This document shows positions 3,309 to 31,846 of a DNA stretch of 32,288 bases, piece by piece. The DNA is from Catajapyx aquilonaris (taxonomy: Eukaryota): NCBI GenBank assembly GCA_000934665.2, contig KZ539142.1, positions 1-32,288 on the forward strand, read 5' to 3'. The notes under the pieces were generated by a model. It saw only the letters and a program-made list of their open reading frames with translations, was not told the origin of the DNA and did no database searches. Numbering within the stretch: position 1 is the first letter of the stretch; each line of letters opens with the position of its first letter. A program made the position numbers and the translations under genes.

Positions 3309-4217
3309 TACACTAAAATTTCTATAAGTTCGAAGTTCTCTATAATTCGAAGAAAATGATGAGCTTGGTTGGTCACAATGTAAAAGAATACGAAATAAAC
3401 TTCCCTAACTCGAATTTCTATAACTCGAAGTTCTCCATAACTCGAAGTGCTGGCAGGGCCTTACGATATCAATGCATTTTCAGTCTCCCTAAGTCGAAGT
3501 TCATGTTGGCGAGTACGAAAAATTTTCTCATTTCCCAGCTGAAGGGTCGAGAGTAGGCGACATGTTGTATAGAAAGGCTCAATTTCCTGATCTCAGTCTA
3601 CCAGACGTACCCAAAGAAGAGTTTGACTCTATTGTGACAATTTAATCCTTGAATCTAATAATAATAATAAATAATTAATAATTCATACCCCGTTATCAGC
3701 CTATCGGCTCTTTAGGGGGGAAGTTTTTGTTTTGCCTGGAACTCTTTGCTTTCATTTTACTGCGCTTTTTGGGATATGATAGGGATGGAAGGAAGCGGCT
3801 GTGGCCTATTAATTATGGAAACAACTCCGGAATTTTCTTGGAAGGACTGTAGGAAACCACAGAAAACCACAGTCAGAGTTGCGGGCCCGGGGATTTGTTC
3901 CCAGGACCTCCCGATTAGCAGTCGGACACCATATCCCCTACTCCAAACTGCTTCAGTTAATCCTTGAATCTAATTGTAGGCATGCCCATAATGGAGATTT
4001 TTTTTTGCAAACAAAACAGCGAGGAACATTGTAAGTGTGATAGTGACAGTTATTTTTAAGTTTTGAACACCTTTCGTCACTGGATATGAAGGCAGGCTTC
4101 CTTATAGACATAGAGTTATGTGCTTTAAAAATTCCAAACTTCTCTAACTCGAATCTTCTATAACTCGAAGTTTTTTTCCGGTCCCATGGAGATTTGACTT
4201 ACAGAAGTTTTACTGTA
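3309..4217 (+). mobile_element. pogo/Tigger-type MITE, family A, copy 1 (SINE inserted)
   Basis: TA-CAGTAAAACTT-like termini, subterminal TATAACTCGAA repeats; collinear with copies at 10985 and 25667. Confidence 0.85.
3660..3956 (-). mobile_element. tRNA-derived SINE, family 4, nested in MITE A
   Basis: 18-bp TSD TTAATCCTTGAATCTAAT (3642-3659, 3957-3974), (ATT)n tail at the left end; body shared with copies at 10662, 29936 and 31256. Confidence 0.85.
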
Positions 4218-6009: not shown

Positions 6010-6173
6010 TCAATAAATCTCTAACATGGAGTTAGGATATCCCAGGAGTTTTAAAGCCTTATGCTCTGCTGTACACAACAGCTCATCTGCTATTGGCATT
6101 AGGCTGTAGTTTCCCACACTATCGACCAGCCATGTATATGTTACTGTTATGGCCTTGTAAGTGCTAAACCACT
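6010..6173 (-). CDS. BRCA1: BRCA1-like terminal exon 10 (BRCT2 C-terminus, stop TGA)
   Basis: tttcttacag|AG-WFSTYKAITVTYTWLVDSVGNYSLMP...MLEIY*; VTYTWLVDSVGNY matches human VTREWVLDSVALY. Confidence 0.88.
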
Positions 6174-9100
6174 CTGTAAGAAAGTGTGATAAATAAGCTG
6201 AGCATTCAACTGTTTCTTGTCATTAAGCAATACACTACCATTATATCTTTGCTTCATGGAATCATGATTATCACAAATAATCACAGCAGGCTCAGAAGAG
6301 GAGGTGCTTATGTCCGTCACAATTGGCCGGGGAGTGCCTCCACATGCTATGACAGCTCCCTGTAAATAAAAGATCCATACTGAAAATCTTCAAGGTAGCC
6401 TGACATGACATCTCTACCTCACTGAACATGGATTCCCTTAATGTGGCTCAAATGTGGTTGATTTATTGCTATCAAAAATTTCAATTTCAATTTTTGTTTA
6501 ATTTTTGTTTAAATTTACCCCGTCATAGGGTGCGAATTTGGTGTTAAGCCACGATGTTCATGTGTCAATAGGACCAAGGGTTGTTTGTTTGGATAGGTGT
6601 AAATGGCGTAAGGTAATTAATGGGTAGAATATTCACAGGTTTGTGAGGAATGGCAGTGTCCATTGAGTTCTTCCAAATGGCTAGAATGTTTGCAGGTTGG
6701 TGGGAGGAGTCGGCATCTGGAAGTTCATACTTGGGCTCTGGATGCTGTGCAGAACTACAAGGTTGGCAAATATTTCTTGCACAGTAATGCATAGGTAGAC
6801 ACCGGTAGTCATGCTTGCAAGGGTATCTGCATCTCTCTCTCTCTCTCTGTCCTGCACAGCACTTGGAGTTTGAGTGTAGATTTCCGTATGCTGGTTCTTT
6901 TCACTGGCCTGTGGGTGTTCTGGTCGTTTGGAGGAGAATATTCTAGTCACTTGGAGGAATTTAACAGTTGCTGATTCCTCTTCCAGAGGGGGGGTGGGGG
7001 GCGGGACGGGTTGTTTATAGGTTTATTTTTACAAGTATTAATTTAGTTCATATTTTGGGTTAGCTTGTGGCTCCCGTCATCGCTGACTACCCCTTTTAGG
7101 GAAATGTTGTGATGGTGATGATGATAGGGCGGAGCCCTTTTAGGGGGGAAGGGGAGGTTCCCAAGGGAGGGCACTGTAATTATACAGGGTGGTCAGTAAA
7201 TGGCGCACAAGCTTCAGGTAGCGAGATTCCTTGTGAAAAACCAGTATATGGAAGTGAAGGTCATATTGCTCTACGATGCCTGGTTATGGCTCACGAGACC
7301 TCCAAAGTTTGGGCCAAATCATGACGTCACGTCCGCCCGCGAAATTCAAACACTACCGTATCACTTCTGTCTGCAGTGCGTTGCCAGGGGTTGCCATGTT
7401 GACATCCCCCACATTTTCACCAAACAAAGGAACCGTATAAACGGGCTGGGACGTTGCCAGGCATTGCCATAACATCGTCGCCGCGTGCCTGGCAACGTCC
7501 CAGCCAGTTTATACGGTTCCTTTGTTTGGTGAAAATGTGGGGGATGTCAACATGGCAACCCCTGGCAACGCACTGCAGACAGAAGTGATACGGTAGTGTT
7601 TGAATTTCGCGGGCGGACGTGACGTCATGATTTGGCCCAAACTTTGGAGGTCTCGTGAGCCATAACCAGGCATCGTAGAGCAATATGACCTTCACTTCCA
7701 TATACTGGTTTTTCACACGGAATCTCGCTACCTGAAGCTTGTGCGCCATTTACCGACCACCCTGTATAGTCATTTCTGACTTTCTAAAATACACCAGAGC
7801 TTTCCTCCTGGCCCTGGGCAGAGTAGGGAGTGCAAGCAGAGGTGACGGGGATGGGATTTGAACCCTGGCCTCCCACTTGGCTGGCCAGTGGCATAACCAC
7901 CAGACCACCATGCCTCCTCAAAAATTTCAATTTGAAGCAATGGTACAATGACTTCCTCCCTGTATACAGGGTGTAAAGGAATTCGGGGGACAAACTTGTA
8001 GGGGTAATAGAGGGGACCAAGACAAACATATTTGTCCTAGGAACCTGTGTCCGGAAACGCCATCTAGAGGGGGTTCATAGACAAGGAATGGGTGCGCTCA
8101 GAAGCGTCAGGCGGGCGGCTGTAGCGAGCAGACCGTTTAGTTGCTAGGTGGCGTGCGGATTGTACACAACTTCGCAATTTGTCATAACCTGGCAACAACA
8201 GAGCCACCTTACAACTAAAGTCAGCATGCTAGGTAGCGCGTAGATAATAAACAACAGCTCTGTTGTTGCCAGGTTATGGCGAATTGCCGAGTTGTGTACA
8301 ACCCGCGCGCCACCTAGCAATTAAACGGTCCGCTCGCTAACGCCGCCAGCCTGACGTGTCTGAGCGCACCCGTTCCTTGTCTATGAACCCCCTCTAGATG
8401 GCGTTTCCGGACACGGGTTCCTAGGTCAAATATGTTTGTCTTGGTCCCATCTATTACCCCTACAAGTTTGTCCCCCGAATTCATTTACACCCTGTAGATA
8501 CAGAGGGAAAATAAATATGAATGAAAATATGACTATGAATGAATGGTACAATGACTGGAAACAAAAACAACAACCTGGGCAAGAGGAAGAGATTATCAAT
8601 ATTGTGAATGGCCATGCTACTAAACTTTGAAAACATGTTTCCCCCTTGTAATGGTGTGCTCTTTCAGGACAACACCCTTCCAACTTTGGGAACCTATCAG
8701 GTCTTATACTGCTTCACAAGGTAAGTTTATGTTGGTATAAACAACCACTCTGATTGGCCTGCTTTCCTAGACTACTACTTTGGTCTTAAGACACGTTTAT
8801 CTGCAAACATAAAGAATCACCAAATGCTGTATTTAGAACTGTTTACTCCATTGCATGAGTGCAGCAGCCCAGGCATAATTTTTTGACAAAATGCCACAAA
8901 ACCTTTGAATTCAAAAGTGTCCTCTACCTGTGGTATCATTCTCTCTTTTCCAAACACCCTAGACAGTCAAAGTGAATGCACAGATGGAAGAATCAATTCT
9001 ACTTAATGCCGTCTTACCTGCCAAGCATCATAGGAAAGTTTTGAGCCGGAAGATCTTATTAAACATATCTGCATTCCCTGGAGAAGCAGCTTGGAAGACA

Positions 9101-12100
9101 GTCTTGCTTTCTGTGGGCCTGGTGTTCCAACCCAGCTGTTCATTTCAAATGGCTCCTGTAAAAAATGGTTCCAGTAAATATTATATACTATTACTACATT
9201 ATCATGGCTACTCTCACATGCATTCCTTAAGGAAAAATGGTAACAATATTTGGCCAACAGCACAGTATGGAGTACTAGTCTGACGCCCCAAGCAAAAACT
9301 CTGCACGTGCAAAAACCATGTATGTTCAGCTAAGCATACCTCTGCACTCCCCTTTATGCTGCCCACGTAATGGTAGAAACGTCGTTTCTCTACGAGCCTC
9401 CATTGCAAAGTTAGGGACAAACCATTTATGTATATGTATGTAAGGCAGGGTCCCCCTAAAAGGACACTGCCCTCTAATGGGGTAAATAAAATAAAATAAA
9501 AATAAAATATGTAAGGCAGGCATGCAAACTTCTAATGCAATTATCTCGAAATGACAAAAACCACACATACAGGGTTTTATGCTTTGGGTGTCAGTAGTGG
9601 AGCCACAAGCCCATGGCACCACCAGTAGGACACCATTAATGTCCAGCACTTGTACTTCAGCTCATATCTGCACAAATCATGAAGAATAAGAGTGCACCTG
9701 GCATGACATCAATATTCCAATACTTTTTTTCAGGGGCGGGAAGAAATAATCTGCCTTAAAACCCTTTAATTACCCTCTCTGTGGTGTACTGAGTGAGCAA
9801 ACATGCATATCAGAGGCTGCACAATAATTGTTTATTGGAACATCTCAGGATGCAAGGAATTTGAGATCTTCAACTTTCTATGGTATTCAATGCCATTGGT
9901 AGATGACTGCTGATTTTGTGTTGACATTTTTCACTAAAACTGGAAGTAATGAAATTTATTCATCCAAAATCATATTTCTCTATTGTATTGCCCTATTTAA
10001 AGGGGCCTTATGCTGTGTAACCAGTGCTCCAAAATAACTCATTCTGCTAAATATCACTTTTAATTAACCCTTTGTCGGAGAAGGTGTGGTGGCTGAGATG
10101 GTAACGTCTCGGCTTGCTGTGCCGCCGGGAGTTACCTTTCGCCTGAGTCACAGTGGGTCTCTGGCCTGTGCCTAAGGAGCTCTTGGCAACCGGCCTCCTG
10201 GGGGACTGCACATGACCCTTTTCAGACATTGCACTTGCACCTGTGTCCCCTCCCAACTCCCCCCATCCTTACCCTACATCCTTAATGTCCTTGCACGGTG
10301 ACTGAAGAAAAACAGAAAATCAATCCTGATGGTGGTAATCCCCCCCCCTAAANCCCCCTAAAAGGGCTTCGTTCCCTCTAATGGGGTAAACAAACAAACA
10401 AACATAACCTTTGTCTACCGTGGCCGTGTTGGTTGCATTATAATGCCACCAAACATAATAATTTGTTAAAATTCACTGGTATAACCCCGACGGAATTTCT
10501 TTCACCATAGCATTACGAAATGTGTGTAGTTTACATGTTCATGAGTATTTACGCGACCCCGCGTGATATTTTTAATGTCATGACGTCATAGGCCAAAGGT
10601 CCCGTTCATTGTCAACAAACACTTACTGCGGGAATTTAAATAGACATAACTCCCTGCCGCAGAGGGAGGCATGGTGGTCTAGTGGTTACGCCACTGCCCA
10701 GCAAAGTGGGAGGCCGGGGTTCAAATCCCATCCCCGTCACCTCTGCTTGGCCGGGTCTTTTTCCGCTTTTCACCTGCAATCCTAACCGTGGTTTTCTGTG
10801 GTTTCCCACGGTCCCCCCCAGGAGAATTCCGGGATTGCTTCCTAAATAAAAGGTCACAGCCGCTTCCTTCCATCCCTATCCTATCCCAAAAAGTGAAGTA
10901 AATGAAAGCAAAGAATCCAATCAAAACAAAATTGGGATGAACTCCCCCCCCTAAAGAGCTGCCGGCTGATAACAGGGTATGAATTACAGTAAAACTTTTA
11001 TAAGTCGAACTTCCCTAAGTCGAAGTTCTCTATAAGTCGAAGAAAATGATGAGCTTGGTTGGTCACAATGTAAAATAATAGGAAATAAACTTCCCTAACT
11101 CGAATCTCTATAACTCAAAGTTCTCCATAACTAGAAGTGCTGGCAGGGCCTTACGATGGGATATCAATGCATTTTCAGTCTCCCTAAGTCGAAGTTCATG
11201 TTGCCGAGTACGGAAAATTTTCTCATTTCCCAGCCGAAGGGTCGAGAGTAGGCCACATGTACAGAAAGGCTCAATTTCCTGATCTCCGTCTATCAGACTT
11301 ACCGAAAGAAGTGTTTGACTCGATTGTGACAATTGAATCCTTGAATCTAAGAGTAGGCAAATGTCCATAACAGAGATTTCTTTTACACCAAAACAACGAG
11401 TAACATTGTAAGTGTGATAGTGACAGTTATTTTTAAGTTTTGAACACCTTTCGTTGCTGGATATAAAGGGAGCCTTCCTTATAGAGTTCTGTGCTTTAAA
11501 AAATCCAAACTTCTCTAACTCGAATCTTCTAGAACTCAAAGTTTTTTCCTGGTCCCATGGAGATTCGACATAGAAGTTTTACTGTATTATTATTATGAAA
11601 ATTGGAATCTGCATGGTGGCTGAAAGCAGTACATGTGGGTGGAGTAACAAGATAACAGATGAACCTAGCAACAGGGCAAATGATAAACATTTTAAATGGA
11701 AAGAACCCAGTCGTGATCTCTATCATGGGTAGTGCCGGATTTCCCAATAGTCAGAGTAGGCAATTGCCTGGGGGCAGCTGCAAATTGGAATATACAAATT
11801 TTCAAATAAAATAAAATAAAATAAAAAGGGGAGAGCTATCTTCATCCTACTTGTCATTATAATGCAACACTTACCTCGGAGACAAGTTGTTTCTTACTGA
11901 GGCACTCCTGCACCCAGGAAAAACTTATTATCCATTTTCTGAAGGCAACTCCCAGTAAGTACTCTCCTGTCGGATTCCTGATATTCATGCTACCAGACGG
12001 CATTATCACATGTGTGACATCCTTCGTGAAAAAGTCAAATGTCTTAGCACTTAGCATTCTTGCCAAGTAGGTCACTAGTCTGATTTCAGTCTTGTTTAGA

Positions 12101-15100
12101 TCACATATTAGCAATCCCACTGGGTCACGTGTGCTTCTGGGAATCATGTGGCGTTGCTCTATCATTTGCATCGTGCTAAAAAAAATCAAAGGCAGACAAA
12201 ATTACCTTCTGGTTAAGTGCTTTGTGGCATCTTTCAAATGCACTGTACACACAACAACTTCGTTCCAGTTTCAATATACTGTATACAGATATGGGGCATT
12301 CTGCGTCAACAGCCACCCGTTGCTGTGACCTTCTCCGATTTTGACCAAATTCGAGTATATTGTAGTGCCCTTATATGTTGAAGAGAAACTGTCAAGATGG
12401 TGGCACACCTTCCGATATGCTCTAAGTAGGAGGTGAGAGCTCTTATAAACATGAGAAATATGCAATAGAATATTTCAAAACTAGCGCTATAGGATGCTTT
12501 TTGAGAGGACAGTTGTAGATCTATAATGCACACAAGGTGGTCCTTCCACCCTCACTCCTCTACTGTCGGATTCTTTGGACCCGACCTTTTGTTGGCTCTC
12601 TTTTCTTTTTTGAATAAGTCCAACTTGTACAGACTTTTATAATGGTTGGCTCTTCAAATATACAGGGTGTCTAAACTTTTTTGTCCGAACAACTATTATC
12701 CGAAATATTGCACTAAGCTGCTTATGTTTTAGCAGTCACTTGCAACCAGTGATGCTTCCCTGGCTTTATCAGCTGAGGGATGTGCCAGGAATGTTGGGGC
12801 ATATTCTGGCTACATAGCTAGAAGATACATAGGCTTTTCCGATAAGGGGTCGTCCATATACCACGTGACCGTTTTGGGGGNNNNNNNNNNNNNNNNNNNN
12901 NNNNNNNNNNNNNNNNNNNNNNNNNNNNNNNNNNNNNNNNNNNNNNNNNNNNNNNNNNNNNNNNNNNNNNNNNNNNNNNNNNNNNNNNNNNNNNNNNNNN
13001 NNNNNNNNNNNNNNNNNNNNNNNNNNNNNNNNNNNCACGTGAAAAAGGGGGGGAGGGGGGGGGGTTCCAATGGATACCACGGTCGGTCACTGGGGGGGAG
13101 GGGGGGTCAAAAAGTGCCCGACAATCGGTCACGTGGTTTATGGACGACCCCTAACTGTTCAGACAAAAAAGTTGAGACACCCTGCATACTGGCAATGGTG
13201 ACCCTCACATGCATTTCATATTAGAATTATATATATATTGTTATCACTTCGCAACTGCAATATATGTAAATGCTCATTAGCTATTCAAAATGATTTTTTT
13301 AAACCTTTTGTTTATTTACATTGGGGTAGGTTAGCACACCCTGCCAAACATAACACTGTGTTTGGCAAAGTATAGCCACCATTGCTTTGCGCCATTAAAA
13401 GCCCAATCAATCAATCAAACAACTGTAACTTCAGAGAGTTTCTCAATAGGTGGAATGCGTGTTGGACAGCACCTACTTAAAGATCGTGGCACCCTTCAGC
13501 CATGTGCCAAGAAAGAGAAGAGCTGTCATATTTTGAGCTGAGCAAGGGACAAAACCCATTGGAATGTATTGACAAATGCAAACACAAATGGATTTGCCAT
13601 GCATCTCGCAGTCACATGTCTAGTGAGTAGTGTAAAAAATTCCCGGTGTCACTGCTCAATTTGTCTGGCCATGGTTAAGCTATTTTCACCTCGCTGGAAT
13701 TTTTTACACAACTTGTAGGCAAATGATTGCGAGCTAATAGGAACACCATATTTAACCAGCATTTGAGCATACATTTCGATGGAGTTTGGCGCTTCTATGC
13801 ATGATACTGAATAACCACTCTCTCCTCCTTGGTACATGTCTGAATGGCACTATCATCTAACCCTTTGTCTCCCATGCGATTTTGAACTCTTCGGGTGTTG
13901 TATATCGAGAGAGAGCAGCAACCGCCTCATAAACTATGCACAAGGCAGTGACGTCATCCTATTGCATCATCTACGTGATGTTTTAAAGGCGGCTTCTACC
14001 CCTCTAAGAAATCCAAGAAAATTCTCTATCCTTCTGAGACCTGATGTGGTCAGATGTCGACATCAGGAAAAAAATTTTTGGCCCCAACTAGTGTTGCCAA
14101 CAGAACTGTAATCTGTTGGTATCCCATGATTACAATCTGGCCTCAATGTGTAGCCACCTAGTGTCAAATAACTGACTTTGGCCGCAAAGATTAAATCACT
14201 CTTGAAAATGGTGGATGCCGCTGCTGAAGCTGGGCGTTCATCTGATAAGTTTATTTTTTCCTCACATTTAGAGTGCGATTTTCGTCAATGCAGAATGTCA
14301 TGGGATTCGCAAGGAATGTGTATTAGGAAATATGAAAAGACGTGTCTGTGACAATCTTTGTTGCTGTAGAGAACTGGTAATTTTCTTTTCTTCCCGAAAC
14401 CAAATTTCCATTTAAATGGACACCCACAAAAAAATTTTTTTAGTTGAATGGGCTGTGACTTTTCTTTAAGTGCCTGCTTTGCGCTACAGTTCAGTTTTAA
14501 AATCTAGAATAGCGAGGGACCATGCTAGGAGGTGAGAAGGGAAGGAGCAAGCCCCAATGCCTGGAATGGTGGCATTCAAAAATAATTGCAGCTTATCTTT
14601 AATTGTCTTAAGACGAATGTTGCTACCACGAATTCCACAAATGAATTTAACCCTCATAGGGCGGGCATGACATACATGTCATGGCAACTTTAAAAAATTC
14701 TGCCGACAAAACTATAGCGTTTTTCCACTGTGTAACGTGGTTTCTGTGTGGCTTTTCATATTTTTTCTCCCGTAAAAAATCACGAATTTTGGACTACAAA
14801 ATCTTGCATAAATAAACCAGATTAACCCGTTTAACTTGAATGACATCATCTTTTTGCGGCCGATGAAAAAAAACTCCCCCCCTCCCAAAAAATTACTGTA
14901 TTACCTCTCATATTGCGACACGCCGGTATAAAACGAGGTCTAACAGCATGCCAGTATAACCTGCGGGTGGCCCGCATGCCCTAATTACCAAGGTAGATTT
15001 CTGTAATTTTGATCCTTGCCAAATTTTTTGGAATGCTTCTGGTACCATACTAAAATAATGTTACAATGAAAATGGGCGAGTCTACAGCTGTAAGAATATG

Positions 15101-16732
15101 TCAGTTCTGTTGCACAGTGCATTAAAAAAATGTAGAGTATATAACCAATCCCATCGTCAGCCTGCTTTGACAGGGGAACCCCCTTCTCTAACATACAGTT
15201 TAAAGAGAGATTATTGCCAAACACTGCAATTGAAAACAATATATGGCGTATGGGTACCCTATTTGGAAAATGTGCCTTTTCGATGGCCTTTATGTGAATT
15301 TCGATTTTCAGGCAAATGTCAAGTTCAGAAAGGATAATGTAATTTATGTGAAAACCTTGCCTTATACCGGCATACCTCGCCCTATACCGGCATGGCGGTA
15401 TAGCCACCAGATCGTGCATTTCTAAAAACTGGTCGACCTCGCCTACACCTGCATGCTGCAATATGAGAGGTAATACGGTATGACCTTGGCTGGCAAATTT
15501 TGAGATATAAGAGTTGCCCCCAAACCTCCTCAAGAGATTCCACCCTAAAATTAGTGCAAAAGATAATTCAGTAACTTTAAAATAAATAAATAATGCTCGT
15601 AAATACCAATTAGCAGCTGGCGGGCCACTGCACAACTCCCTCCCGGCCTTTGCCAAGATGGAAGGGCGCATGCCCCGCAGGGCTTTTGAACACCTGTGGA
15701 GCGAGGCAGGTTTCCACTCGGGTGGGGGGTATATGTATCTTTCTGTAGCTCGGATTCCTATTGTGTGATGTATTATTCATGCATACTGGTCTGTTCAGCA
15801 GCGCCAGGGCGACATACACATATACTTCAGGTTAGCGCAGGAGTGACAAAAAATTGGAAAAAAAATAAATAGGCGCGAAACGCACCCCTGATGCATACGA
15901 GTATGTTGAGACTTTTAAGAATTTAAATCTCTGCATGGTATGGCAAGAGGGTCCCATAAATGGCCTCAGGATCAAGCCTAGACACTACACGATGTTACTC
16001 ACTAGATTAGTCACGTGTGGTCCCTCAAATGACAATGTAAGCTATTTTTTTGCAGATTCTTGCAAAACCGTGAAAAAAACCGCCCCTCTAATGAGGTATT
16101 AGGGTTACAAAACATTGTTTGGAAGATAGAGCACTATGTTAGTGATCCCTCAAGTGGCATTTAAATTTTCAGCTTTCATCTGTTCTGCTTTTGTAGCAGA
16201 AATTGGGTCCTAATATTCTCATTGGTTGTGTCATTATTTTTGTCAATATTTTAGAACTATAATTTTTTTCTCGTTTCTTATTTGGATAATGTTCAGAAAA
16301 TGCCATAGGAACTGACATTGCGTTACTCAATTCTTCTCAGGTCTCAGGAGGATATGGTTGCTCAGTCCCTCTGATGAATTATGAAAACATTAAGTGTCAC
16401 TAGGGAAGGCGAAGTGGCGCTGCGGTAACGGATGCGCCCACGGATGGAAGGGTCCCGGGTTCGATACCAAGCCTGGGCATTCCCCCCTTTCATCTCGTGC
16501 GGAGTTCGGGGTCATCTCCTGCTTCGTCTAGGGTGGGATTTCCGATAGATGATGAACCATCCGGGGGAGTTCACAAAATGACCATAGTGCTGACATTGCC
16601 CTGCACATTCCACATCCCCTACCAGTCACCCGGTCCCTGGACCAGGGCGCTTCGTCGAAACATGACAAACTGTACTACCTTGTGGCAATAAAGGTCCGTG
16701 CAAAACCTCATATGAGGTACGCACTATACCCA

Positions 16733-16797
<65 letters not shown>

Positions 16798-18547: not shown

Positions 18548-18594
<47 letters not shown>

Positions 18595-21500: not shown

Positions 21501-24500
21501 CCGCTGTTGCAGATGAAAGGAATTGTGATTCACACGATGGCTGAGTGCATTATTCTAAGTTTTATTAACAAATGGATGGTCAATGTAAGAGTTAATTATT
21601 ATTACCGGTACCTAGCAAATGCTCCATGATGTAATTCATTTTCTTTGCAAAATCACCTGAATCAGAATGTTTTAGTCTCATTATCTCTAAAGCTGCTGTG
21701 ACTAGATTTCCTATGCCATTGCCAGCGGAAGGGCGCAGATCATATCAATTACCGAAAAGCAATTAAGAAGTGACCAATTTTACCTAGTTCCAGTAAGCAA
21801 GGCAGTACGCAGGGGGCCATTGTTGCGCAAGAACACACCCCGAAACTCAATATACCGATACATTTCTTGTGAACTGCCATCCTTAACTTCTGTAATGTCT
21901 CACAATAAACTTTTGGCTTGAAGAAACGTAGCAGCATGTTAAGTTTCGGGGTGTTTTCTTGCGCGACAATGCCCCCCTGCGTGCTGCCTTGCTTACTGGA
22001 ACCCTGCCGCAACAATTCAAGTGAGAATTTGTTGATCACCTGGGATTTAGAGCATAATGATTACCGCTTGTCCATGGACAGGGAGAAATGGCTTGCAAAG
22101 CAGAAGGTTGATGATGACGAGGAATTGCAATCCAGCATTCAGGGATCGCGGAAATGGCTGGCGGCAGACTATGACATAGGCATACAAAATTGTGTGTAAC
22201 TCAATGAAAAATGCCTCGATTTGGCAGGAAACTATTTTGAAAAAAAGTAGACAGTTGTCGATTTCAGATGTGTAAATAAAACTTCTGGGGGTGCATTGTG
22301 GTTATTCTAATAAAAAAACGGAACTTACTTTCTGGACGTGCCTCGTACATATCAATTTTCATAGGGAACCATACAATTATTAAAAAGCTATTGAGGAATG
22401 TTTGGGTTTCCTAGAGAGAGAATCATCCTGTATTTTCATGAGCATTAATGATGGCTTACCTCTTCAAATTCTTCCTCTAAGCTGTTTGATATGAAGCTCG
22501 TCTCATTATCATTATATTCTTCTGTTCCAGTCATGTAATCATTCTGGATGGCCTTGACTATTTCTTGATCTTCAGTAGGAGCCTTAAACCCACCATTCAC
22601 ATGCTTCCCTTCTCCGTCAGCTGATTGATCAGTAGTGCTTTCCTTCGGGTCAGAAAAACCACCATTGTCATCTAGGTGGGGAGTGTCTTTCATATCATCA
22701 TTCTTGTCATTTGAATTGGCCCAAGAATGCTTGGTTGTACTTGGCTCTGCCTGTTCATTACTATCATAATATTCATGAGGTGAATCAAGATGACTTGTCC
22801 TTGGAACCAATCCTTGAGAATTGTCGATATCAGTCAAATCAACCTCAGTGTGGGAGTCTGTCCAAATGTCTGTAGTGGGCCGAATCTCATCACTGAAGGT
22901 GGGCCTTCTGGGTGCCTGACCCTGCAGTCGCCCACGCAATAAGAAAAGCACTCTATGTCTGAAAGGCCGTCTACACTTGCTACAAATGTAAGGCTCAGAT
23001 GGTTGTTTGCATGAGCATACCATTTTACTTTGTGGCACCTTAGAGCAAGCCTCATCGCCACAGGAAGGTGACCCTTCAATGTGTGTTGGAGCAATATGTG
23101 ACAGTAATAGCTGAGTATCATATTTGGGAGAAGGTTTCACACATTCTAGGTCTTGTGTGTCTGCCGGAAGGGAAAAAGTGACCCGCCTGTTCTCCTTTAA
23201 TAGTGACTGAACAACTTTCTTCTCAGTTGACCTTGGCAACAGTCGAGGGTCACGGGCAGCCCCTAACGAACCCCGTGTAGGGGTTGGTGTTTCCAAATGC
23301 AATTGACTTTCTGGCCTTTCACAACCCACCAACGCTTCTGTGGGCAACTGGGCTGGCAAGCTGGAGGGACCTTCCTTTCCTGCAAATGGAATTGAGAGAC
23401 ACTCTGTAGACAGTTCAGGTGCACTTGCATAGAGTCTTTTGCATGGCTGGATGTTACTTGGAAGTAACCCTAGGATCAAAAAGTTCCCGGAAGGTAGCGA
23501 TTGAGAAGGGGAGAGATGCGCTTTTTTGGAGTATCTGCACACAATCCTAATGAGGCAGTGTGCCAAGTGGAATTGCCCTGTGTACATCTGAACGCATCTC
23601 GCCCACGCTTCTGAAAACCCACTGCATGTCTACTTGTCAATCCACAATGTGCAGGCAAGTTTATGGATAAAGATTTGCGTGAAGCTCGGGAAATATTCAA
23701 CTGAGGCACTAGGAAAGCTTCATCAGGCTTCTCGTGATCAAGCTTTAGGCCACAAGCACAATGTTTTGAGTTGCAATTGCCTTTCAAGTGTGGTCAATGT
23801 CAATTGAATGTCACGTGCACTCGGGAAGACCACACATCAACACAGCCTCTGAAATTTCGATAAATCATTTGTGAGGACCACCTCCATACTATTCATGAGA
23901 TCTGTGACAGAGATGGGATTCAGTTCCAGGTCATTCGTACCTATGAAATGAACCTGCATTGTGGCATGTCCCTAGGCTTCTGACACCTGACCAGAAACAG
24001 TGGTGCCTCGACGTGTCCAAGAGCTTTGAGAAACTGTAAATGGCAACTCAGCATTCATAAAAGGCGATGATATTTGTCATGGCAACCTTTACACTGGAAA
24101 AGCCAACTTTAGTCACTTGTGATGCACACACAGTGCTCGTTTTTGTCAGCATCACAGGATTGACGTGTAGACGTGCAATGGGTTCACAAAAGCGCGTTCG
24201 AGACGCGTTCAGATGTACACAGGACAATGCCACTTGCCACACTGGCTAATTAGGACTGTTTGCAGGTACACCTAAAAGCGCATCTCTCTACTTCTCAAGG
24301 TGGCCAAGTAATCAGTGCATTCCGGGAACTTTTTGATCCTACTACACTACCGGTCAAAAGTTTAGCATCACCCCCAAGCTCCGGTTTTTTAAATTTCTCA
24401 AGCCTAAACTTACAGTATAAATTGAAAGTGTGAGGCACCATTGAAAGCATAGTGAATAACACTACAAACCAAAAAAGGAACGGTCATTCTAGGTTCAACA

Positions 24501-25299: not shown

Positions 25300-28200
25300 G
25301 AAGAAATGGCGCAAAAAAAACACAGTTTGAGTGATAATTTGTTAAAATTTTTGTGGCAATTTTTTGGATTGGACGGAAAAAACTTAACCGGTGGGGAGCA
25401 AGGGAAGGAATCGAGGTATATGGAACGTGAAGTGGCAAAGATTGGGTAATCAAAGAGTAGGTGAAAGAGGTCTAAGGGACAGTTTATGTTACACCAATCA
25501 CGTGTATTTTCTGACAATCTTATGCCAGTACCAGCTTTTATGGGGATATAGCCTACTGTAGGTGGAAAAATTTCAGGCATACCTCACTTAGACCGCCATG
25601 CCAATATAGCCACCAGATCGTGAATATCTAAAAACTGGTTGACCTCGACTACACCGGCATGTGAGGTACATTAAAACTTCTATAAGTCGAACTTCCCTAA
25701 GTCGAAGTTCTCTATAAGTCGAAGAAAATGATCAGCTTGGTTGGTCACAATGTAAAATAATAGGAAATAAACTTCCCTAGCTAGAATTTCTATAACTCGT
25801 AGTTCTCCATAATTCGAAGTGCAGGCAGGGCCTTACGATGGGATATCAATGCATTTTCAGTCTCCCTAAGTCGAAGTTCATGTTGGCAAGTACGGAAAAC
25901 ATTTTCTCATTTCCCAGCCGAAGGGTCGAGAGGAGGCCACATGTACAGAGAGGCTCAATTTCCTGACCTCCATCTACCAGACGTACCGAAACAAGTGTTT
26001 GACTCGATTGTGACAATTGAATCCTTGAATCTAAGAGTAGGCAAATGTCCATAACGGAGATTTCTTTACAACAAAACGACGAACATTGTACGTGTGATAG
26101 TGACAGTTATTTTAAAGTTTTGAACACCTTTCGTCACTGGATATGAAGGTATGCTTCCTTATGGAATTCTGTGCTTAAAAAAGCCAAACTTCTCTAACTC
26201 GAATCTTCTATAACTCGAAGTTTTTTCCCGGTCCCATGGAGATTCGACTTATAGAAGTTTTACTGTATGTGAGGTAATGCGGTACCATAACACAATGCAC
26301 AGAGTTTAATGTGTAGATGACTTTGTCTGTATTCACCTAGAGGTGACAAAGCTACTTCACCTCTCTCACCCTTCCTCTCTCCCTTCTCTTCCCCAAAACC
26401 AGCTGGTGCAGCTTCCTGAGCTCCTTGCTTTTCACAACCTTCCCCAACCTCCTTCCTCCACACCTAATCGCTACCAGGATTATGTGACCAGTGTATAGTT
26501 GAGGATACGAGGCCCGAGCAAACCACATATTGAGTACGTTTACAAGGGACTAAAAATCGGCCTGACCCAGGCTTCCTAAGCAAGGCCTATCTGCGCAAAG
26601 CCTGCTCCCACTTTTGCCACTGCTACATGGGACTGACTATACCGGGCACTACATGGGACAGAGGGGGTGAGCCGCCCGAAAATAGTCCCTACCATGCCGG
26701 GCCATACTCCGCTCCTCACAGCAAAATGTGCAATATGTGTAGCTCTGCAGCTACCGCATGGGCTGCCCGTGATAATTAGGCAGTTGAATTACATGTACCA
26801 GCACTGTTTATTCGAGAAAGCCACAGATACGGGGGGACTATTTTCGCGGCCAGTAGTCCACTCAGAAGCAAGTCCTGGGCTGTCCCCTAGCAGCCAATCA
26901 CCGCCATCGCCTTAGGTAGACCACCCGATCCAGAAGGCTTGGGCTGCGCCCGACAACGGATCAGATAAGGCCGGTCTATCGTAGGCCCAGCGGCTACATG
27001 GGAGTAAACCGGTTCGCCTAGCATAGGCGGCCGTAGCTAGGCTGATTTTTAGTCCCATGTAAACGTACTCATTGATACTGTAACAAATGCACTAGCAAGA
27101 CCCTCTACCAGCAGAAATAACTGCTTTCAAAAGCAGAACGGGAGTGCGCGACCCATGTCCATCTTTATGCTTGTGACTATACATTGTTGGTTAATGCTTA
27201 ATCAGGTTTTATGTCTTGAAATAAGGTCACATCTTACCTTCTTCATCTGCACATTCTTTGATTGGCACGGCCTTCTTTGATGCCATACCGCCAACCAGCT
27301 CCTTTCCTTTTCCTCGTTTTCGCTTGCACATTGGTGACCGAGGTCTTTCCTCTTCTGACTCACAATTTCTGAGTCTTTTCACTTGGGTGGCCAAGGTGTT
27401 CTGGCTTCTGGTTTTAGTACAAATTGCTGGGTTCGAGGATGATGGCACTGTATTAGCTGTTATGGAATTAAGCCATACAGTCACTTCAGAAGTAGAATTT
27501 ATTTCACTAGCTTCAGGAAGGATGTCTGGCTCATCACGCTGATTTGATTCAGAGGACACAAGGTCACTGGTGCCCTGACCCAATACAACAGTGTTATATG
27601 CATTTGCATGCTTCAGAGATCCAATAGAAGTGGTCCCACACGAGATAACATCATCATTTCCTAAGAAGTAATAAAAATAAAATAAATACATATCACACTG
27701 TATCCTTTACCCAAGACGTTGCAAGTTGGGTTATCTGGGTGGTGTCCTGCCATGGTGAATAAACCCTCAAATTATGTGTGTACATGGCTGACTGTCAAGT
27801 GGTTGGCCAGAGAATGTCAATAACTCCAATCAGGCTCTGATTTCACCTCCCTGTTATACGCCAATAAATCAACTCAATCCCTTGCCCATCTGCCATCCCA
27901 AGCCACCACCACCACCACCTCTCAGCAAGACATGATCCCCCAATTTAGTCACTTCAGTCTCAGCAGTGATTATTGGGTGTGAAGCGTGGCAGTAGTGAAG
28001 CAAATGTGTTCAACTAGGTAATTCAGTTTAAGTGGCAAGAGAAGAAGCACATCATTCTTACTTGCATATCCAATAGTTTGATTGAAGGCAGCATCAAGAG
28101 ATCTGATGGATATGATGACAGTGCCTGACGGTTCATCACCATACAGGCTTCTCTTTGGCATGCTCTTATTGCACAGTGGGCATTTGGGGTCAGCTTTTCC

Positions 28201-31200
28201 GAACAGAGATGTCTCGATGCAAAATCGGCAAAATCTATGATTACAAGATGTAACCATGGGTGACATCATCAAATCGTGGCTGTAACAGCAGAATGTAAAA
28301 ATTACACTTCAAAAGTCTCAATACAACACACTGATTCTGAACCCTAATACAGTGAAACCTGTTCATAACGGACCCTGGGTACAGTGGAAAATTGTCAATT
28401 TCTGGGAACGGGCACAGGACATGCTATATATATTTTTGACAGATATTGCGGAAACCTGTTCATTATGGAAAAATTTTCAGGTCCCATGCGATTTCACTAT
28501 GCACAGGTTTCACTGGAGTACCGTATTCCCCTCACTTAAAGCGGCATGCCGGTATAATACAAGGTCGACCAGCATGCCGGTATAACACGAGCTGCAATAC
28601 CAGAGGTAGATTGATCCATAATTTTGATCCTTGTCTTAATTTTTTTGGAATGCACATGGTACTGTACTAATATAATGATACAGTGAAAAATGTGCGAGTA
28701 CAGGCCTACAGGGCTGTCAGACTAGGCAAGTTCATCTGTTGCACAGGGCATAGAGTGTGGCCAATCCCATAATCAGCCGGCTCAGAGAGGGGAAACATTA
28801 CAAAGGATCAAGGCAATAAATTCCTTCAGTCCTTTCTTTTGCTCAATAGTTCGCTGGTCGCAGATCTCCAGAGGATCTCTTTATGTAGTGGTATCAATTT
28901 GTCTGAGAAGCCTCGTTACTCCGATAAAATCCAATCTCAATGTATGAAATATCCTGATATAGTATGTTATGCTTCCCTTCATGCAGCCTTGCACTTTTAA
29001 TTGAAAATGTTGCTGTGAAAGAACTTACGAACGATCTTATGCGATGTGTCAGGCAATAGAAGCAGTGATTTTGGGCCAATGACGTTGTGCCATTCAAAAT
29101 ATCACGCAAGTGGCGTAAATACTCATGAACATAGAAGCTATGATCATTTCTTAGGGCTATGGTGAAAGAAATTTCCGTCGGGGTTATACCAGTGAATTTT
29201 AAAAAAATATTTTGTTTAGTTGTATTATAATACAACCAAATCGGACGCGGGAGACAAAGGGTTAATTTAGGGACTTCTAGACAAATGAAAGTTGTTTCCA
29301 ACACAGTCATAGTGTAGAGCAGCTGTTCCCAAACTTTTTTGAACAAGTACGACTCCGCGAGGACCAGTAAACTGAAGTGCCACTGTCAATCGTTAATTTA
29401 CGCCCGTGTTGTTTTGAAGAAAAAGTCACTATAATCACTATAATCACTATAATTATGACGTTAAAGTGATATAAAATAATTAAAGAATCGTTTAAAAAAA
29501 GCGCGAGGTGTATAAACAGGTAAAACGACTGCAAAGTCATATGCGCGATTATAATGACGACCCCAAAGACAGCACAGGTCACACGAGTGGCCACACGAGT
29601 ACCACTTGGCATGGCTTGAAGTACCACCAGTGGTATGCGTACCACAGTTTGGGAACCACTGGTGTAGATCATGAACGTGTAAGTGTATCTGTTACTATTT
29701 GTGAAATATCTTGTCCTTATCTTCAGAGTAAATGCAAGCGAAAATCTAAGCGATGGAATTCAGTGATCTTCTTGGAAATTAATTTAGGGATTTCTAGACA
29801 AGGAAAATTCTTTCCAAAATATAGGCCCTATGTTGTTTTCCATGAACATGTAAGTATAGCTGTTATTATTTGTAAAATATATGATAATTATCTTCAGAGT
29901 ACATGCAAACCAAAATCTAGGTGATCCCAGGGTACCGAAGCAGTAGTGGCGGAGGGGATTTGGTATCCGACTGCTAATCGGGAGGTCCTGGGTTCGAGTC
30001 CCGGAGGCCGGCGGTCCTGACCTTGGTTTTCTGTGGTTTTCCAAGGTCGCCCCAGGAATAATTTCCAGGATCGTACCGTAAAATAGGCCACAGCCACTTC
30101 CTTCCTTTCCCTGTCCTGGAGGAGGTGCGGGTTAGTCGGGGGTTTCTAACTCGCATCTAGGGGGTCATCTTGGCGAACGGGCCCCCTGAGGGACTGCACA
30201 CGACCCCCAACTTGATGACATTGCACATGCACCAGTGTCCCCCCCTCCTATCCCCACCCTGTCCCTGCACGTAGTGGTATTCCACTCCCCTAAGAGAGCC
30301 CATGGCTCTAGCACGGGGTATATCTAAAAAAATAAAAAAAAAGTGATCCCAGGGTACATCAGGGGTATTCAACGAGTTTATGACAAGGTCCAGTATTTAC
30401 CTTTCCTGGGCCATTGAAGGTCCGAACCCCCTCCCCCCCCTCCCCAGCTAAAGATATGGATTTTATATTTTTATATGGTACCACAGGGTTCATTTTTGAA
30501 AATAGAAACATGTACAGCAAGGGTAGAAGGGCCTATCAAGACAGGCCATATTAAGTCATTTTCGCCCTTTATGATGTCCTGTACAGGCACGTCCAGGCAG
30601 AAAAATTTCGGAGGGGGGCCCATTTCATAAGCACAAGATGAACAAGCCGTAGAGGGCGGGGAGCAAGCCCGGCGCAGGCGAAATTTTTTTGACGGGGTGG
30701 AAGGTCACAAGAGCTTATGTGAAAGTGGGAGATTTGAATGGGTGTGTATTTGATAAAATTGGTAGCACTTTTTCCAAAAAATCATGAATTAGTAATTTCT
30801 AATGCTATTTCAACCTGTCCTGTATATCGTCGCGGTCCAGACAAAATTATGTCGCGGTCCGGATCCGGACCGCGGTCCGCCAGTTGAATAGCCCTGAGCT
30901 ATACTCTGCACCGATCCTTTTGGAAATTAATTTAGGGACTTCTAGACAAGGAAAATGGTTCCAAACACATACATAACGTAGAGCGTGAACATGTAAGTAT
31001 AGCTGTTATTATTGGTAAAATATTATTTTTAATCTTTAGAGTAGCATACATGTAAGCTTAACGGACACTAAATTCTAGATGATGGCGGTATATCTGGGGC
31101 CGAAAGGGAACATAATCCACAAAAGTCATCAGCAATCATGAAGTCAAAGTCCATGGAAGTACTCCTGCTAAATGTTAGGTGCTTGGATATGATTGAGAAG

Positions 31201-31846
31201 CACTGTACTCTGTACACAAAGATATCAGATTACTATTGCACCTCACATTAAATATAATAATAATAATAATAATAATAATTTGTACCCCGTGCTAGAGCCA
31301 TGGGCCCTCTTAGGGGGGTGGGATACCACCATATTTTATATATATATATATCTGGAACTCTTACTTTCGTTTTTACTTCTCTTATATGGGGATGGGATAG
31401 GGACGGAAGGAAGCGGCTGTGGCCTATAATTACGGACACGACCCCGGAATTTTCCTGGTGAGACCATGGGAAACCACAGAAAACCACGGTCAGGGTCGGC
31501 GGCCCCCGGGATTCGAACCCAGGACCTCCCGATTAGCAGTCGGACACCTCACATTAAATATTATATGCTACATTTGAACATATTTTAAAGTCCATTATCT
31601 TCGACTCTAGTCCCAGTGACGCCAGACGCAAGAGCGAAGGAAGGAACCAGTTACATCAGCGGAGAGTCACCCATCCAATTACGTCTGATTTCCGCCAGAA
31701 ATCTGTAGCAGCCATAGCAAGTCTCCACCTGTTCATTACCATATGCTGCAGGTGATTTCCAGCTTCATGCGTTCTATGATACTCCGGACTTCCTCCTCTG
31801 TCTCCTTGGTCATCCCGCTGATCTTCCCATCACCGTGTGGAGCCAT
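6010..31846 (-). CDS. BRCA1: BRCA1-like RING + tandem BRCT protein, 10 coding exons, about 858 aa (888 aa with the alternative exon-4 acceptor)
   Basis: Exons 31846-31740, 28279-28062, 27660-27238, 23379-22460, 18272-18204, 18134-18019, 12175-11875, 9155-9018, 6359-6239, 6173-6010 join with GT-AG sites and matching phases (2,1,1,0,0,2,0,0,1) into a 2577-nt stop-free frame. EEVRSIIERMKLEITCSIC matches human EEVQNVINAMQKILECPIC; no ankyrin repeats, which argues against BARD1. Confidence 0.88.
6239..6359 (-). CDS. BRCA1: BRCA1-like exon 9 (BRCT2)
   Basis: tttatttacag|GAVIACGGTPRPIVTDISTSSSEPAVIICDNHDSMKQRYN-G|GTAGTG; CGG and hydrophobic strand as in BRCT2. Too short to appear in the ORF track. 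Confidence 0.82.
6490..6960 (-). mobile_element. Non-LTR retrotransposon 3' remnant
   Basis: Broken coding-like frames ending in CACCCTATGACGGGGTAAA followed by an A-rich tail, the same terminal motif as the SINEs. Confidence 0.4.
7185..7764. mobile_element. Near-perfect fold-back MITE (Tc1/mariner-type, TA TSD)
   Basis: Arms 7181-7463 and 7486-7768 (283 bp, 3 mismatches seen), 22-nt spacer, CAGGGTG termini. Confidence 0.92.
7835..7919 (-). mobile_element. SINE head fragment
   Basis: Reverse complement matches the tRNA-like head of the SINE at 10662 (GGCATGGTGGTCT...GGTTCAAATCCCATCCCCGTCACCTCTGC). Confidence 0.7.
7967..8494. mobile_element. Second fold-back MITE (Tc1/mariner-type, TA TSD)
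   Basis: About 240-bp inverted arms with scattered mismatches, CAGGGTGTAAA termini. Confidence 0.9.
9018..9155 (-). CDS. BRCA1: BRCA1-like exon 8 (BRCT linker and start of BRCT2)
   Basis: tttttacag|EPFEMNSWVGTPGPQKARLSSKLLLQGMQICLIRSSGSKLSYDAWQ|GTAAGA; matches human DFEV...GPKRAR...IFRGLEICC. Confidence 0.88.
10064..10640 (+). mobile_element. piggyBac-type family D end with a family-3 SINE (about 10077-10404) inserted in its TIR
   Basis: TTAACCCTTTGTC is duplicated around the SINE; the sequence after it matches reverse copies at about 17130-17330 and 29030-29265. Confidence 0.7.
10662..10984 (+). mobile_element. tRNA-derived SINE (family-4 body); tail interrupted by MITE A
   Basis: A/B boxes (TGGTCTAGTGG, GTTCAAATCC); 3' end GATAACAGGGTATGAAT; (ATT)n resumes at about 11587. 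Confidence 0.8.
10985..11586 (+). mobile_element. pogo/Tigger-type MITE, family A, copy 2
   Basis: TA-CAGTAAAACTT...AAGTTTTACTG-TA; collinear with the other two copies. Confidence 0.88.
11875..12175 (-). CDS. BRCA1: BRCA1-like exon 7 (BRCT1)
   Basis: ttttttttag|C...VTHVIM...YLLGVAFRKWIISFSWVQECLSKKQLVSE|GTAAGT; gapless match to human BRCT1 (THVVM...[29 protein letters not shown]). Confidence 0.92.
12661..13186. mobile_element. Mariner-type MITE containing a PIF/Harbinger-type MITE (12846-13151, TAA TSD) and an assembly gap
   Basis: Outer TIR CAGGGTGTCTAAACTTTTTTGTCCGAACA; inner TIR GGGGTCGTCCATAWACCACGTGACCG with TAA on both sides; N run 12881-13035. Confidence 0.8.
14651..16105 (-). mobile_element. 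piggyBac-type MITE, family C, reverse copy with nested family-B MITE
   Basis: TTAA-CCCTCATAGGGCGGG left end; both parts match 2030-2856 in reverse. Confidence 0.8.
14894..15480 (+). mobile_element. TA-flanked MITE, family B
   Basis: TIR CYGTATTACCTCTCATATTGC; inverted copy at 20956-21491, fragments at about 25596-26284 and 28519-28795. Confidence 0.85.
16403..16792 (+). mobile_element. tRNA-derived SINE, family 2
   Basis: A box TGGCGCTGCGG, B box GTTCGATACC, long (ATT)n tail, TSD ATTAAGTGTCA (16389-16399, 16793-16803). Confidence 0.85.
17130..17330 (-). mobile_element. Family D fragment
   Basis: Matches 29060-29230 directly and 10430-10600 in reverse. Confidence 0.65.
17340..17720 (+). mobile_element. 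Non-LTR retrotransposon ORF2 C-terminal remnant
   Basis: LACLRLG followed, across a stop and frameshift, by SLC...DWFHLWWECKLF, a decayed CCHC knuckle. Confidence 0.5.
18019..18134 (-). CDS. BRCA1: BRCA1-like exon 6
   Basis: Weak AAG acceptor|NSGERSTFSPEDDHDMENDPDVVPLSLEAADNRPTDIT-AA|GTAAGT; the phase-2 donor matches the acceptor of exon 7. Confidence 0.65.
18204..18272 (-). CDS. BRCA1: BRCA1-like exon 5
   Basis: catcttttag|EQVGNMERKLQPNKSRKQHRDGY|GTAAGT, phase 0 to 0. Confidence 0.7.
18548..19010 (-). mobile_element. Non-LTR retrotransposon 3' end with tail
   Basis: CTLCNTLNFDLFHILYDCQFF (CCHC knuckle), then a stem-loop, AATAAAC and (ATT)n tail. Confidence 0.7.
19014..19390 (+). mobile_element. 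Family C 5' fragment
   Basis: Collinear with 2036-2415. Confidence 0.8.
19529..19811 (+). mobile_element. 5'-truncated family-3 SINE
   Basis: Matches the body and tail of the copies at 10077 and 24920. Confidence 0.75.
20340..20617 (+). mobile_element. tRNA-derived SINE, family 1, copy 2
   Basis: Collinear with 2920-3221; 14-bp TSD ACTTGTAGYGATTG with one CpG-type mismatch. Confidence 0.88.
20956..21491 (-). mobile_element. Family B MITE, inverted copy
   Basis: TA-CCGTATTACC...GGTAATACGG-TA; reverse match to 14894-15480. Confidence 0.85.
21787..22348 (+). mobile_element. Mariner transposase C-terminal remnant with right TIR and an internal inverted duplication
   Basis: GVFLRDNA (HDNA motif), DLEHNDYRL (YSPDLAPSDY), KWLAKQKVDDDEEL, GIQ...KCLDLAGNYFEK*, and TIR ending CCTCG-TA. 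Confidence 0.85.
22460..23379 (-). CDS. BRCA1: BRCA1-like exon 4 (large low-complexity central exon)
   Basis: Within the 380-aa ORF; acceptor ctcaattccatttgcag|GA AAG, donor GAA GAG|GTAAGC. An in-frame alternative acceptor would start the exon at 23469. Confidence 0.78.
23470..24341 (+). mobile_element. Mariner-derived fold-back element with N-terminal transposase remnant
   Basis: About 175-bp inverted arms starting AGGATCAAAAAGTTCCCGGAA; internal IKICVKLGKYSTE, HSGRP and VPRLLTPDQK in shifted frames. Confidence 0.85.
24343..25395. mobile_element. Tc1-type palindromic MITE with a family-3 SINE inserted (24920-25295)
   Basis: TA-CACTACCGGTCAAAAGTTT left end; internal palindrome centred near 24813; SINE flanked by 13-bp TSD ATAAGAAGAAATG. 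Confidence 0.75.
25395..25590 (-). mobile_element. Non-LTR ORF2 C-terminal remnant
   Basis: WCNINCPLDLFHLLFDYPIFATSRSIYL resembles the knuckle near 18850 (DLFHILYDC). Confidence 0.5.
25667..26267 (+). mobile_element. MITE family A, copy 3, inserted in a family-B end
   Basis: Collinear with 10985-11586; the family-B terminus GAGGTAATGCGGTA follows it. Confidence 0.88.
26532..27070. mobile_element. PIF/Harbinger-like MITE
   Basis: About 32-bp TIR GAGTACGTTTACAWGGGACTAAAAATCRGCCT, 3-bp ATT duplication, internal CTACATGGGA repeats. Confidence 0.75.
27238..27660 (-). CDS. BRCA1: BRCA1-like exon 3 (S/T/E-rich, candidate NLS KRKRGK)
   Basis: cttcttag|GA-NDDVISC...ECADEE-G|GTAAGA; open frame, phase 1 to phase 1; lies within ORF 27227..27691. 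Confidence 0.8.
28062..28279 (-). CDS. BRCA1: BRCA1-like exon 2 (RING finger C3HC4)
   Basis: ttacag|C-HDLMMSPMVTSCNHRFCRFCIETSLFGKADPKCPLCNKSMPKRSL...AFNQTIGYA-A|GTAAGA; all Zn ligands and the KRSL motif present. Confidence 0.92.
28348..28795. mobile_element. Small pogo-type MITE (28348-28517) abutting a family-B fragment (28519-28795)
   Basis: TIR CAGTGAAACCTGT / ACAGGTTTCACTG, then TACCGTATT and sequence matching 14900-15180. Confidence 0.7.
29030..29265 (-). mobile_element. piggyBac-type family D end
   Basis: Ends GGGAGACAAAGGG-TTAA. Confidence 0.7.
29320..29661. mobile_element. hAT (Charlie-type) MITE
   Basis: TIR CAGYKGTTCCCAAAC; 8-bp TSD GTGTAGAG / GTGTAGAT. Confidence 0.82.
29936..30342 (+). 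mobile_element. tRNA-derived SINE (family-4 head with central structured domain)
   Basis: A box TGGCGGAGGGG, B box GTTCGAGTCC, A-rich tail, 15-bp TSD GTGATCCCAGGGTAC. Confidence 0.88.
30360..30896. mobile_element. hAT-type MITE
   Basis: TIR CAGGGGTATTCAAC / GTTGAATAGCCCTG, subterminal CGCGGTCC repeats; no clear TSD. Confidence 0.7.
31256..31544 (-). mobile_element. 5'-truncated family-4 SINE
   Basis: 17-bp TSD CACCTCACATTAAATAT (31239-31255, 31545-31561), B box and (ATT)n tail. Confidence 0.88.
31740..31846 (-). CDS. BRCA1: BRCA1-like coding exon 1 (N-terminal helix and first RING CxxC)
   Basis: MAPHGDGKISGMTKETEEEVRSIIERMKLEITCSI-TG|GTAATG, phase-2 donor inside the second Cys codon. A second in-frame ATG (MTKETEEE) could be the real start. 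Confidence 0.85.

Follow-up and report, generated by a model that had tools for sequence, protein, structure and literature searches.

The stretch of DNA analyzed here (32,288 nucleotides [nt] of contig KZ539142.1 from Catajapyx aquilonaris, assembly GCA_000934665.2; hereafter, the window) is eukaryotic DNA of ~40% G+C whose minus strand carries, almost wholly within its limits, a BRCA1-like gene of ~26 kb. The first of the two C-terminal BRCT domains encoded by this gene (BRCT1) has Cys, Asp, and Glu at the three positions where human BRCA1 contacts the phosphate of its ligands with Ser, Gly, and Lys, in a domain that otherwise keeps most of its strongly conserved residues. We give about even credence to the reading that the gene is a real, fast-evolving BRCA1 ortholog that has lost canonical phospho-docking while keeping the RING and the BRCT fold.

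Residues of the phosphopeptide pocket of BRCT1 are replaced

The exon that encodes BRCT1 and the pocket positions within it are given below, with the corresponding residues of human BRCA1 in parentheses. Single residues were assigned by codon reading, and the two replaced motifs were assigned by alignment and codons.

11875..12175, minus strand: BRCT1 exon, 301 nt, site of the pocket changes
12100..12105, minus strand: Cys-Asp replacing the phosphate-binding Ser-Gly pair (1655/1656)
12105-12103, minus strand: TGT, Cys (S1655)
12102-12100, minus strand: GAT, Asp (G1656)
11962..11973, minus strand: Pro-Thr-Gly-Glu replacing the usual Arg/Lys-Thr-Leu-Lys (1699-1702)
11973-11971, minus strand: CCG, Pro (R1699)
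11970-11968, minus strand: ACA, Thr (T1700, kept)
11967-11965, minus strand: GGA, Gly (L1701)
11964-11962, minus strand: GAG, Glu (K1702)

Read along the minus strand, the exon (12175-11875) is preceded by a pyrimidine-rich acceptor ending in ttttttag and followed by a donor (GAG, then gtaagt). The first base of the exon is the last of a split codon, after which the frame stays open for 100 codons (P0001). The translation is matched by Pfam BRCT with an expect (E) value of 3.7e-7. Among PDB structures, phmmer retrieved rat BRCA1 (1l0b) at E 3.2e-9 and human BRCA1 BRCT chains at ~5e-8; query residues 21-101 align with chain residues 6-86 of the latter without gaps, which confirms the gapless alignment to human BRCA1 that had been proposed from the letters alone. 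BARD1 chains scored between 4e-8 and 3e-7, in an alignment that requires a 3-residue gap. A profile of 87 homologs, from which the window was excluded, recovered the exon at E 1.4e-25 among 1409 six-frame open reading frames (ORFs).

Human BRCA1 numbering was anchored on chain 3pxa, whose title names G1656D and whose Asp at chain residue 11 corresponds to query residue 26. The original prediction listed the substitutions S1655 to C, G1656 to D, R1699 to P, and K1702 to E, and all four codons were read exactly where it had placed them. The fold residues that it described as kept were also all found, as T55, H56, T70, G76, A78, W82, and W88 of P0001. The four named residues are thus replaced, but the further statement of the prediction that every phosphopeptide contact is replaced goes too far: Thr1700 is kept, G1656 makes its contact through the backbone NH, and the hydrophobic side that receives the residue at position +3 is changed only in part. 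Thr is the sole residue preserved from the Ser/Thr-Gly pair after strand 1 and the Thr-x-Lys motif at the start of helix 2. The acidic pocket of the original prediction is putative, since the basic residues Arg67 and Lys29 lie nearby in the exon sequence, and its suggestion of a basic ligand is speculative. No Lys was found in exon residues 60-80, so no plausible shift of the alignment would provide the pocket with a Lys.

An AlphaFold model of the BRCT1 exon, computed with 41 homolog rows, showed the BRCT order of strands and helices at a mean predicted local distance difference test score (pLDDT) of 87.3, in which Cys25-Asp26 immediately follows strand 1 and helix 2 begins with Thr70-Gly-Glu72. 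When the modeled exon was compared with known structures by Foldseek, BRCA1 BRCT structures came first (template modeling [TM] score, ~0.74) and BARD1 next.

In human BRCA1, the S1655F substitution impairs phosphopeptide binding. According to a published contact map, Ser1655, Gly1656, and Lys1702 contact the phosphate; Leu1701, Phe1704, Asn1774, Met1775, and Leu1839 form the pocket for the Phe at position +3; and Arg1699 bonds the main chain of that Phe (PMC4728184). The same text reports that missense variants at Gly1656, Met1775, and Arg1699 weaken binding or abolish it and that Glu is no substitute for phosphoserine in the ligand (PMC4728184). In the tandem alignment, the +3 pocket of the window protein combines conservative changes (F1704 to Leu, M1775 to Leu, and L1839 to Val) with nonconservative ones (L1701 to Gly, R1699 to Pro, and N1774 to Lys), the equivalences near 1774/1775 being uncertain, with a one-residue insertion in the loop between strand 1' and helix 1'.

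The contact map and the human variant structures strongly suggest that canonical binding of phosphoserine-x-x-Phe (pSer-x-x-Phe) motifs is lost. The phosphoserine anchor of BRCT1 would have been dismantled by the changes of Ser-Gly to Cys-Asp and of Lys to Glu, and the +3 contacts beside it would have been altered too, by those of Arg to Pro and Leu to Gly. The window BRCA1 would then no longer dock on pSer-x-x-Phe partners in the manner of vertebrate BRCA1 on BRIP1, CtIP, and Abraxas. We infer continued function through an alternative route of recruitment, in which RING E3 activity with BARD1 would presumably be retained and chromatin would presumably be reached either via the partner or by phospho-independent contacts of the retained BRCT fold.

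Rarity of the pocket changes among homologs

An exhaustive phmmer search of 1.84 billion representatives yielded 175 matches at E ≤0.001, the best 150 of which were realigned to the BRCT1 exon. Three of these were dropped before a census of 147 rows was taken: P0078, for which no stretch could be aligned; P0151, a protein with multiple BRCT domains that contributed three stretches, one of them with Glu at the position aligned to 1702; and P0139, a 107-residue fragment with a loop deletion, Phe for Trp1712, and likewise Glu at aligned 1702. Counted over all 151 aligned stretches, position 1702 is occupied by Lys (148), Glu (2), or Asn (1). Within the census it is Lys in 146 of 147 rows, and the exception is the Asn of a Darwinula stevensoni protein. 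Asp at 1656 occurs in none of 123 aligned homologs and Pro at 1699 in none of 147, while position 1655 is Ser in 71, Thr in 21, and Cys in 11 of the aligned homologs. Judged from these alignments, the replacement of the pocket is highly unusual among homologs. Word-index searches with the BRCT1 exon returned no close relatives, and the open-access literature that we searched describes no BRCA1 ortholog lacking the pocket.

Architecture of the gene

The remaining modeled exons, together with two candidate frames between the RING and the BRCT domains, are as follows.

31740..31846, minus strand: first coding exon, from pattern search and translation, with an in-frame ATG at 31846 or 31813
28062..28279, minus strand: RING exon, 218 nt, from PDB and Pfam matches, tblastn, splice sites, and translation
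27230..27706, minus strand: open frame of 159 codons from the ORF listing, candidate middle exon with a basic patch resembling a nuclear localization signal
22448..23629, minus strand: open frame of 394 codons from the ORF listing, candidate large central exon
9018..9155, minus strand: inter-BRCT linker plus first part of BRCT2, 138 nt, both boundaries in phase 0, from tblastn, profile, and splice sites
6239..6359, minus strand: middle exon of BRCT2, 121 nt, from canonical splice sites and a phase that fits its neighbors
6010..6173, minus strand: last exon, with the end of BRCT2, a conserved Trp, the tail, and the stop codon TGA (6012-6010), from tblastn, profile, and alignment

The N-terminal helix and the first RING Cys come from the first coding exon, which ends, before gtaatg, with the TG of a split Cys codon; its N terminus is similar to those of 57 RING-bearing homologs. 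The second RING Cys codon is split here as it is at the boundary between exons 2 and 3 of human BRCA1. The RING exon finishes the Cys codon left incomplete at 31740 and supplies the remaining Cys/His zinc ligands, eight of eight being present across the two exons. Its four best PDB matches are all BRCA1 RING chains (1jm7_A, 3.7e-8), the BARD1 RING being absent among the 60 PDB matches listed for this exon, and it was further matched by Pfam zf-C3HC4 (E 1.3e-5) and, in tblastn, by 66 of 150 homologs. Of the two frames downstream, that at 27230..27706 probably holds a middle exon and that at 22448..23629 is probably the large central exon, whose position between RING and BRCT fits the BRCA1 architecture; neither has a Pfam family match, and a word-index search with the large central frame gave no relatives.

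The four BRCT exons are bounded by AG/GT sites with pyrimidine tracts, match in phase, and splice into a stop-free tandem BRCT of 240 residues. The frame is thus intact, as had been proposed, both in the BRCT1 exon and across the spliced tandem. Three of the four exons are significant singly with the homolog profile. The exon with the linker reached E 3.3e-5 and was matched in tblastn by 11 homologs (best E, 2e-4), and the last exon reached E 1.5e-10 and was matched by 53 (best E, 4.4e-6). The middle exon of BRCT2 scored E 1.5 alone and falls into register with the homologs only inside the spliced tandem. The last exon also encodes an arthropod-type C-terminal tail with a G-Y-P motif that is common to insect BRCA1. 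When the ORFs of BRCT2 were searched alone against the PDB with phmmer, only chance matches were obtained (a designer PPR protein, PsbE, and acanthaporin); it takes homolog profiles or the spliced tandem to recognize these exons. About 1 kb past the stop codon, a minus-strand stretch at 4838-4951 resembles the linker and BRCT2 start of insect BRCA1 (G-P..S-K-I-R-E-K...C..P); it matched 9 of 150 homologs in tblastn with E 0.006, yet reached only E 0.67 with the profile, and was set aside as not significant. It could be a chance likeness or an old exon relic.

The identification as a BRCA1-type gene, also made in the original prediction, is supported by the BRCA1-like RING, by the tandem BRCT, and by the fact that no ankyrin repeats were found: ankyrin families matched none of the 131 minus-strand ORFs of at least 38 amino acids between 12200 and 31900, a scope outside which lie shorter exons and a 155-N gap. 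The best matches of the spliced tandem are homologs named BRCA1 at NCBI, from thrips, an ant, bees, moths, and the hemichordate Ptychodera. The architecture of the gene is that of BRCA1 and not of BARD1.

Several features of the introns were also recorded. Downstream of the linker exon, the intron that leads to the next BRCT2 exon contains an inverted repeat (7181-7463 and 7486-7768) with arms of 283 nt that are 99% complementary and spaced by 22 nt, perhaps a foldback element, perhaps an artifact of assembly. A single N stands at 10353. Long trinucleotide microsatellites, translating into runs of Asn, Ile, or Tyr, occupy the intronic positions 16711-16846 and 18513-18645, and another lies at 3122-3220.

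Divergence, decay, and copy number

A number of points weigh against regarding this gene as a real ortholog with a retained fold. The exon model consists of the start exon, the RING exon, and the four BRCT exons, with the middle of the gene represented by open frames only, and all exons are known from genomic DNA alone. The AlphaFold model covers the BRCT1 exon alone rather than the tandem as one chain. A gap of 155 N at 12881-13035, in the intron directly upstream of the BRCT1 exon, could hide a small exon. The closest homolog in the exhaustive search is 44% identical over BRCT1. In a FastTree tree of 88 tandems, the window forms a long branch near the root, beside protist sequences, and its terminal branch of 1.42 substitutions/site ranks fourth of the 88 (median, 0.33); because of this long-branch attachment beside protists, the placement was not used as evidence either way. 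Across the whole tandem, the window retains 24 of 35 conserved columns, the ninth lowest value of the 88 (median, 0.91), and several BRCT2 consensus columns are among those lost. The low retention and the long branch are consistent with relaxed constraint too.

These last observations would be expected of a gene that is sliding toward loss, in which constraint has been relaxed, the pocket has gone first, and the decay is too recent to have broken the open frame. Precedents exist in arthropods: BRCA1 is missing from Drosophila and Aedes, with the spider-mite ortholog unlisted (PMC13571142), and arthropod gene loss is reported within the BRCA1 module (PMC3969565). We nonetheless consider decay unlikely. 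Every modeled exon has an open frame, the splice sites are canonical and agree in phase, and none of the RING zinc ligands is missing. In BRCT1, the window retains 17 of the 20 columns whose consensus is 70% or higher, and the three lost are L1701 (Gly), K1702 (Glu), and a conservative change of Val to Ile. Annotated moth and springtail BRCA1 proteins are equally divergent, the figure of 24 of 35 being equal to that of an annotated springtail BRCA1 and near those of moth BRCA1s, so divergence alone is no sign of decay.

The loss is, moreover, concentrated in the pocket, where 1 of 5 positions is retained; among the other columns whose consensus is 58% or higher, 20 of 24 are (Fisher p = 0.013). 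All eight homologs that retain as few tandem columns as the window, or fewer, have Lys at 1702. The Lys kept in equally divergent homologs and the concentration of loss in the pocket argue that the pocket was not lost as a by-product of general divergence. The BRCT fold still looks constrained, and the gene looks intact.

A different history, in which the window gene is a neofunctionalized paralog and the canonical BRCA1, its pocket intact, resides elsewhere in the genome, appears improbable to us. In Darwinula stevensoni, one of two BRCA1-like BRCT proteins has Asn at the position of Lys1702, so duplication with erosion of the pocket is possible in crustaceans, and in the tree the window is a long branch beside protists. 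The window copy, however, has the full architecture of an ortholog, from the start codon to the C-terminal tail, and neither the DNA runs nor the window gave evidence of a second copy. The BRCT1 exon is contained in four DNA runs of one sample, which is probably the source of the assembly. In each of three runs, probably from that source sample and hence not independent of it, exactly one contig lies over the exon, with 0 differing letters and flat depth. With the threshold for a copy in the DNA contigs set at 80% likeness, these runs exclude a second near-identical BRCT1 exon, that is, copies at least 80% alike as distinct from diverged paralogs. Within the window, neither tblastn nor the homolog profile found a second BRCT1-like exon. 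A fifth DNA run under the same species label contains nearly no words of the exon and touches the intronic repeat only.

Intronic repeats flank the BRCT1 exon, at 11731-11794 and from 12312, and are highly multicopy in the DNA runs; in run X1, their summed contig depth rises to ~1479, compared with 30.6 over the exon. Short interspersed nuclear element (SINE)-like translations similar to these repeats occur at many places in the window, among them near 3760-3969, 10639-10875, 29787-30131, and 31251-31548.

It is also hardly probable that the pocket has been rebuilt, with Lys29 and Thr30, where helix 1 begins, or Arg67, which precedes the Thr, binding phosphate or another anion in a shifted geometry. 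In favor of this reading, Thr1700 has been retained, changes on the BRCT2 side of the +3 pocket are conservative, and TopBP1 BRCT7 binds phosphate via an extra arginine of helix 1 (PMC4728184). Against it, the carboxylates of Asp26 and Glu72 flank the site and exon residues 60-80 are devoid of Lys.

Ligand context and significance

Functionally, the BRCA1 C terminus is defined by the Ser-Gly...Thr-x-Lys pocket, where many cancer-associated variants lie. Among the homologs surveyed here, the pocket is conserved from protists to mammals, the most divergent ones included. Abraxas (FAM175A) and RAP80 (UIMC1) are reported to have arisen only shortly before the vertebrates (PMC3969565), so that at least one classical ligand would not be expected in arthropods. 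Some ligand presumably exists in insects, given that the pocket is conserved in insect BRCA1.

If the fast-evolving ortholog that we favor is intact and carries a charge-reversed pocket, it would reveal BRCA1 functions that are independent of phospho-docking. It would then be a natural counterpart to engineered BRCT-pocket mutants and would point to recruitment by a different mode or to a different use for the BRCT fold. We hold more tentatively that it is a working BRCA1 without phosphopeptide recognition, in which RING and BRCT fold are kept, and hence a natural separation-of-function allele; such a protein would point to a conserved phospho-independent role for the tandem BRCT. Seen beside the Asn-bearing copy of the ostracod, it would suggest repeated rewiring of BRCA1 recruitment in crustacean-type lineages. 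If the gene is decaying instead, it would represent a step on the way to the BRCA1 loss already known from flies, mosquitoes, and a spider mite.

Comparison with known systems

The window protein resembles human and rat BRCA1 (tandem BRCT structures 1jnx, 1t15, and 1l0b) in the gapless alignment of BRCT1, at 25-31% identity, in the order of secondary structures, and in the arrangement from RING to tandem BRCT. It differs from them in having Cys, Asp, and Glu for Ser1655, Gly1656, and Lys1702, Pro for Arg1699, and Gly for Leu1701, as well as in encoding BRCT1 within one exon. The change of G1656 to Asp is shared with the human variant structure 3pxa (G1656D), which is also the best-scoring human chain for the window BRCT1. 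Whereas 3pxa, 3pxc (R1699Q), and 3pxb (T1700A) represent single changes from patients, the window combines changes at five pocket positions in a wild-type gene.

The tandem BRCT of BARD1 (3fa2 and 2nte) gives similar E values and an even lower root mean square deviation from the window model (1.2-1.5 A), but aligns with a 3-residue gap and belongs to a protein with ankyrin repeats, none of which were found here.

Only one named homolog among the 147, Darwinula stevensoni CAG0884999.1 (P0080), also lacks the Lys, which is Asn in this protein. Like the window, it has Cys at 1655 and a nonbasic residue at 1699, but it shows no charge reversal, and its tandem shares only 25% identity with that of the window. 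Its gene model joins DOT1, BRCT, and insect-cuticle domains and is probably a chimeric annotation. The second BRCA1-like BRCT protein of this species (P0105) keeps the Lys.

The arthropod BRCA1 homologs of Frankliniella fusca (KAK3930076.1), Thrips palmi (XP_034243716.1), Hylaeus volcanicus (XP_053974472.1), and Orchesella dallaii (CAL8102353.1) are among the best matches of the tandem. They have the linker length and the C-terminal tail motif of the window protein, and several are similarly divergent; unlike it, all four have Thr-x-Lys and most have Ser/Thr-Gly.

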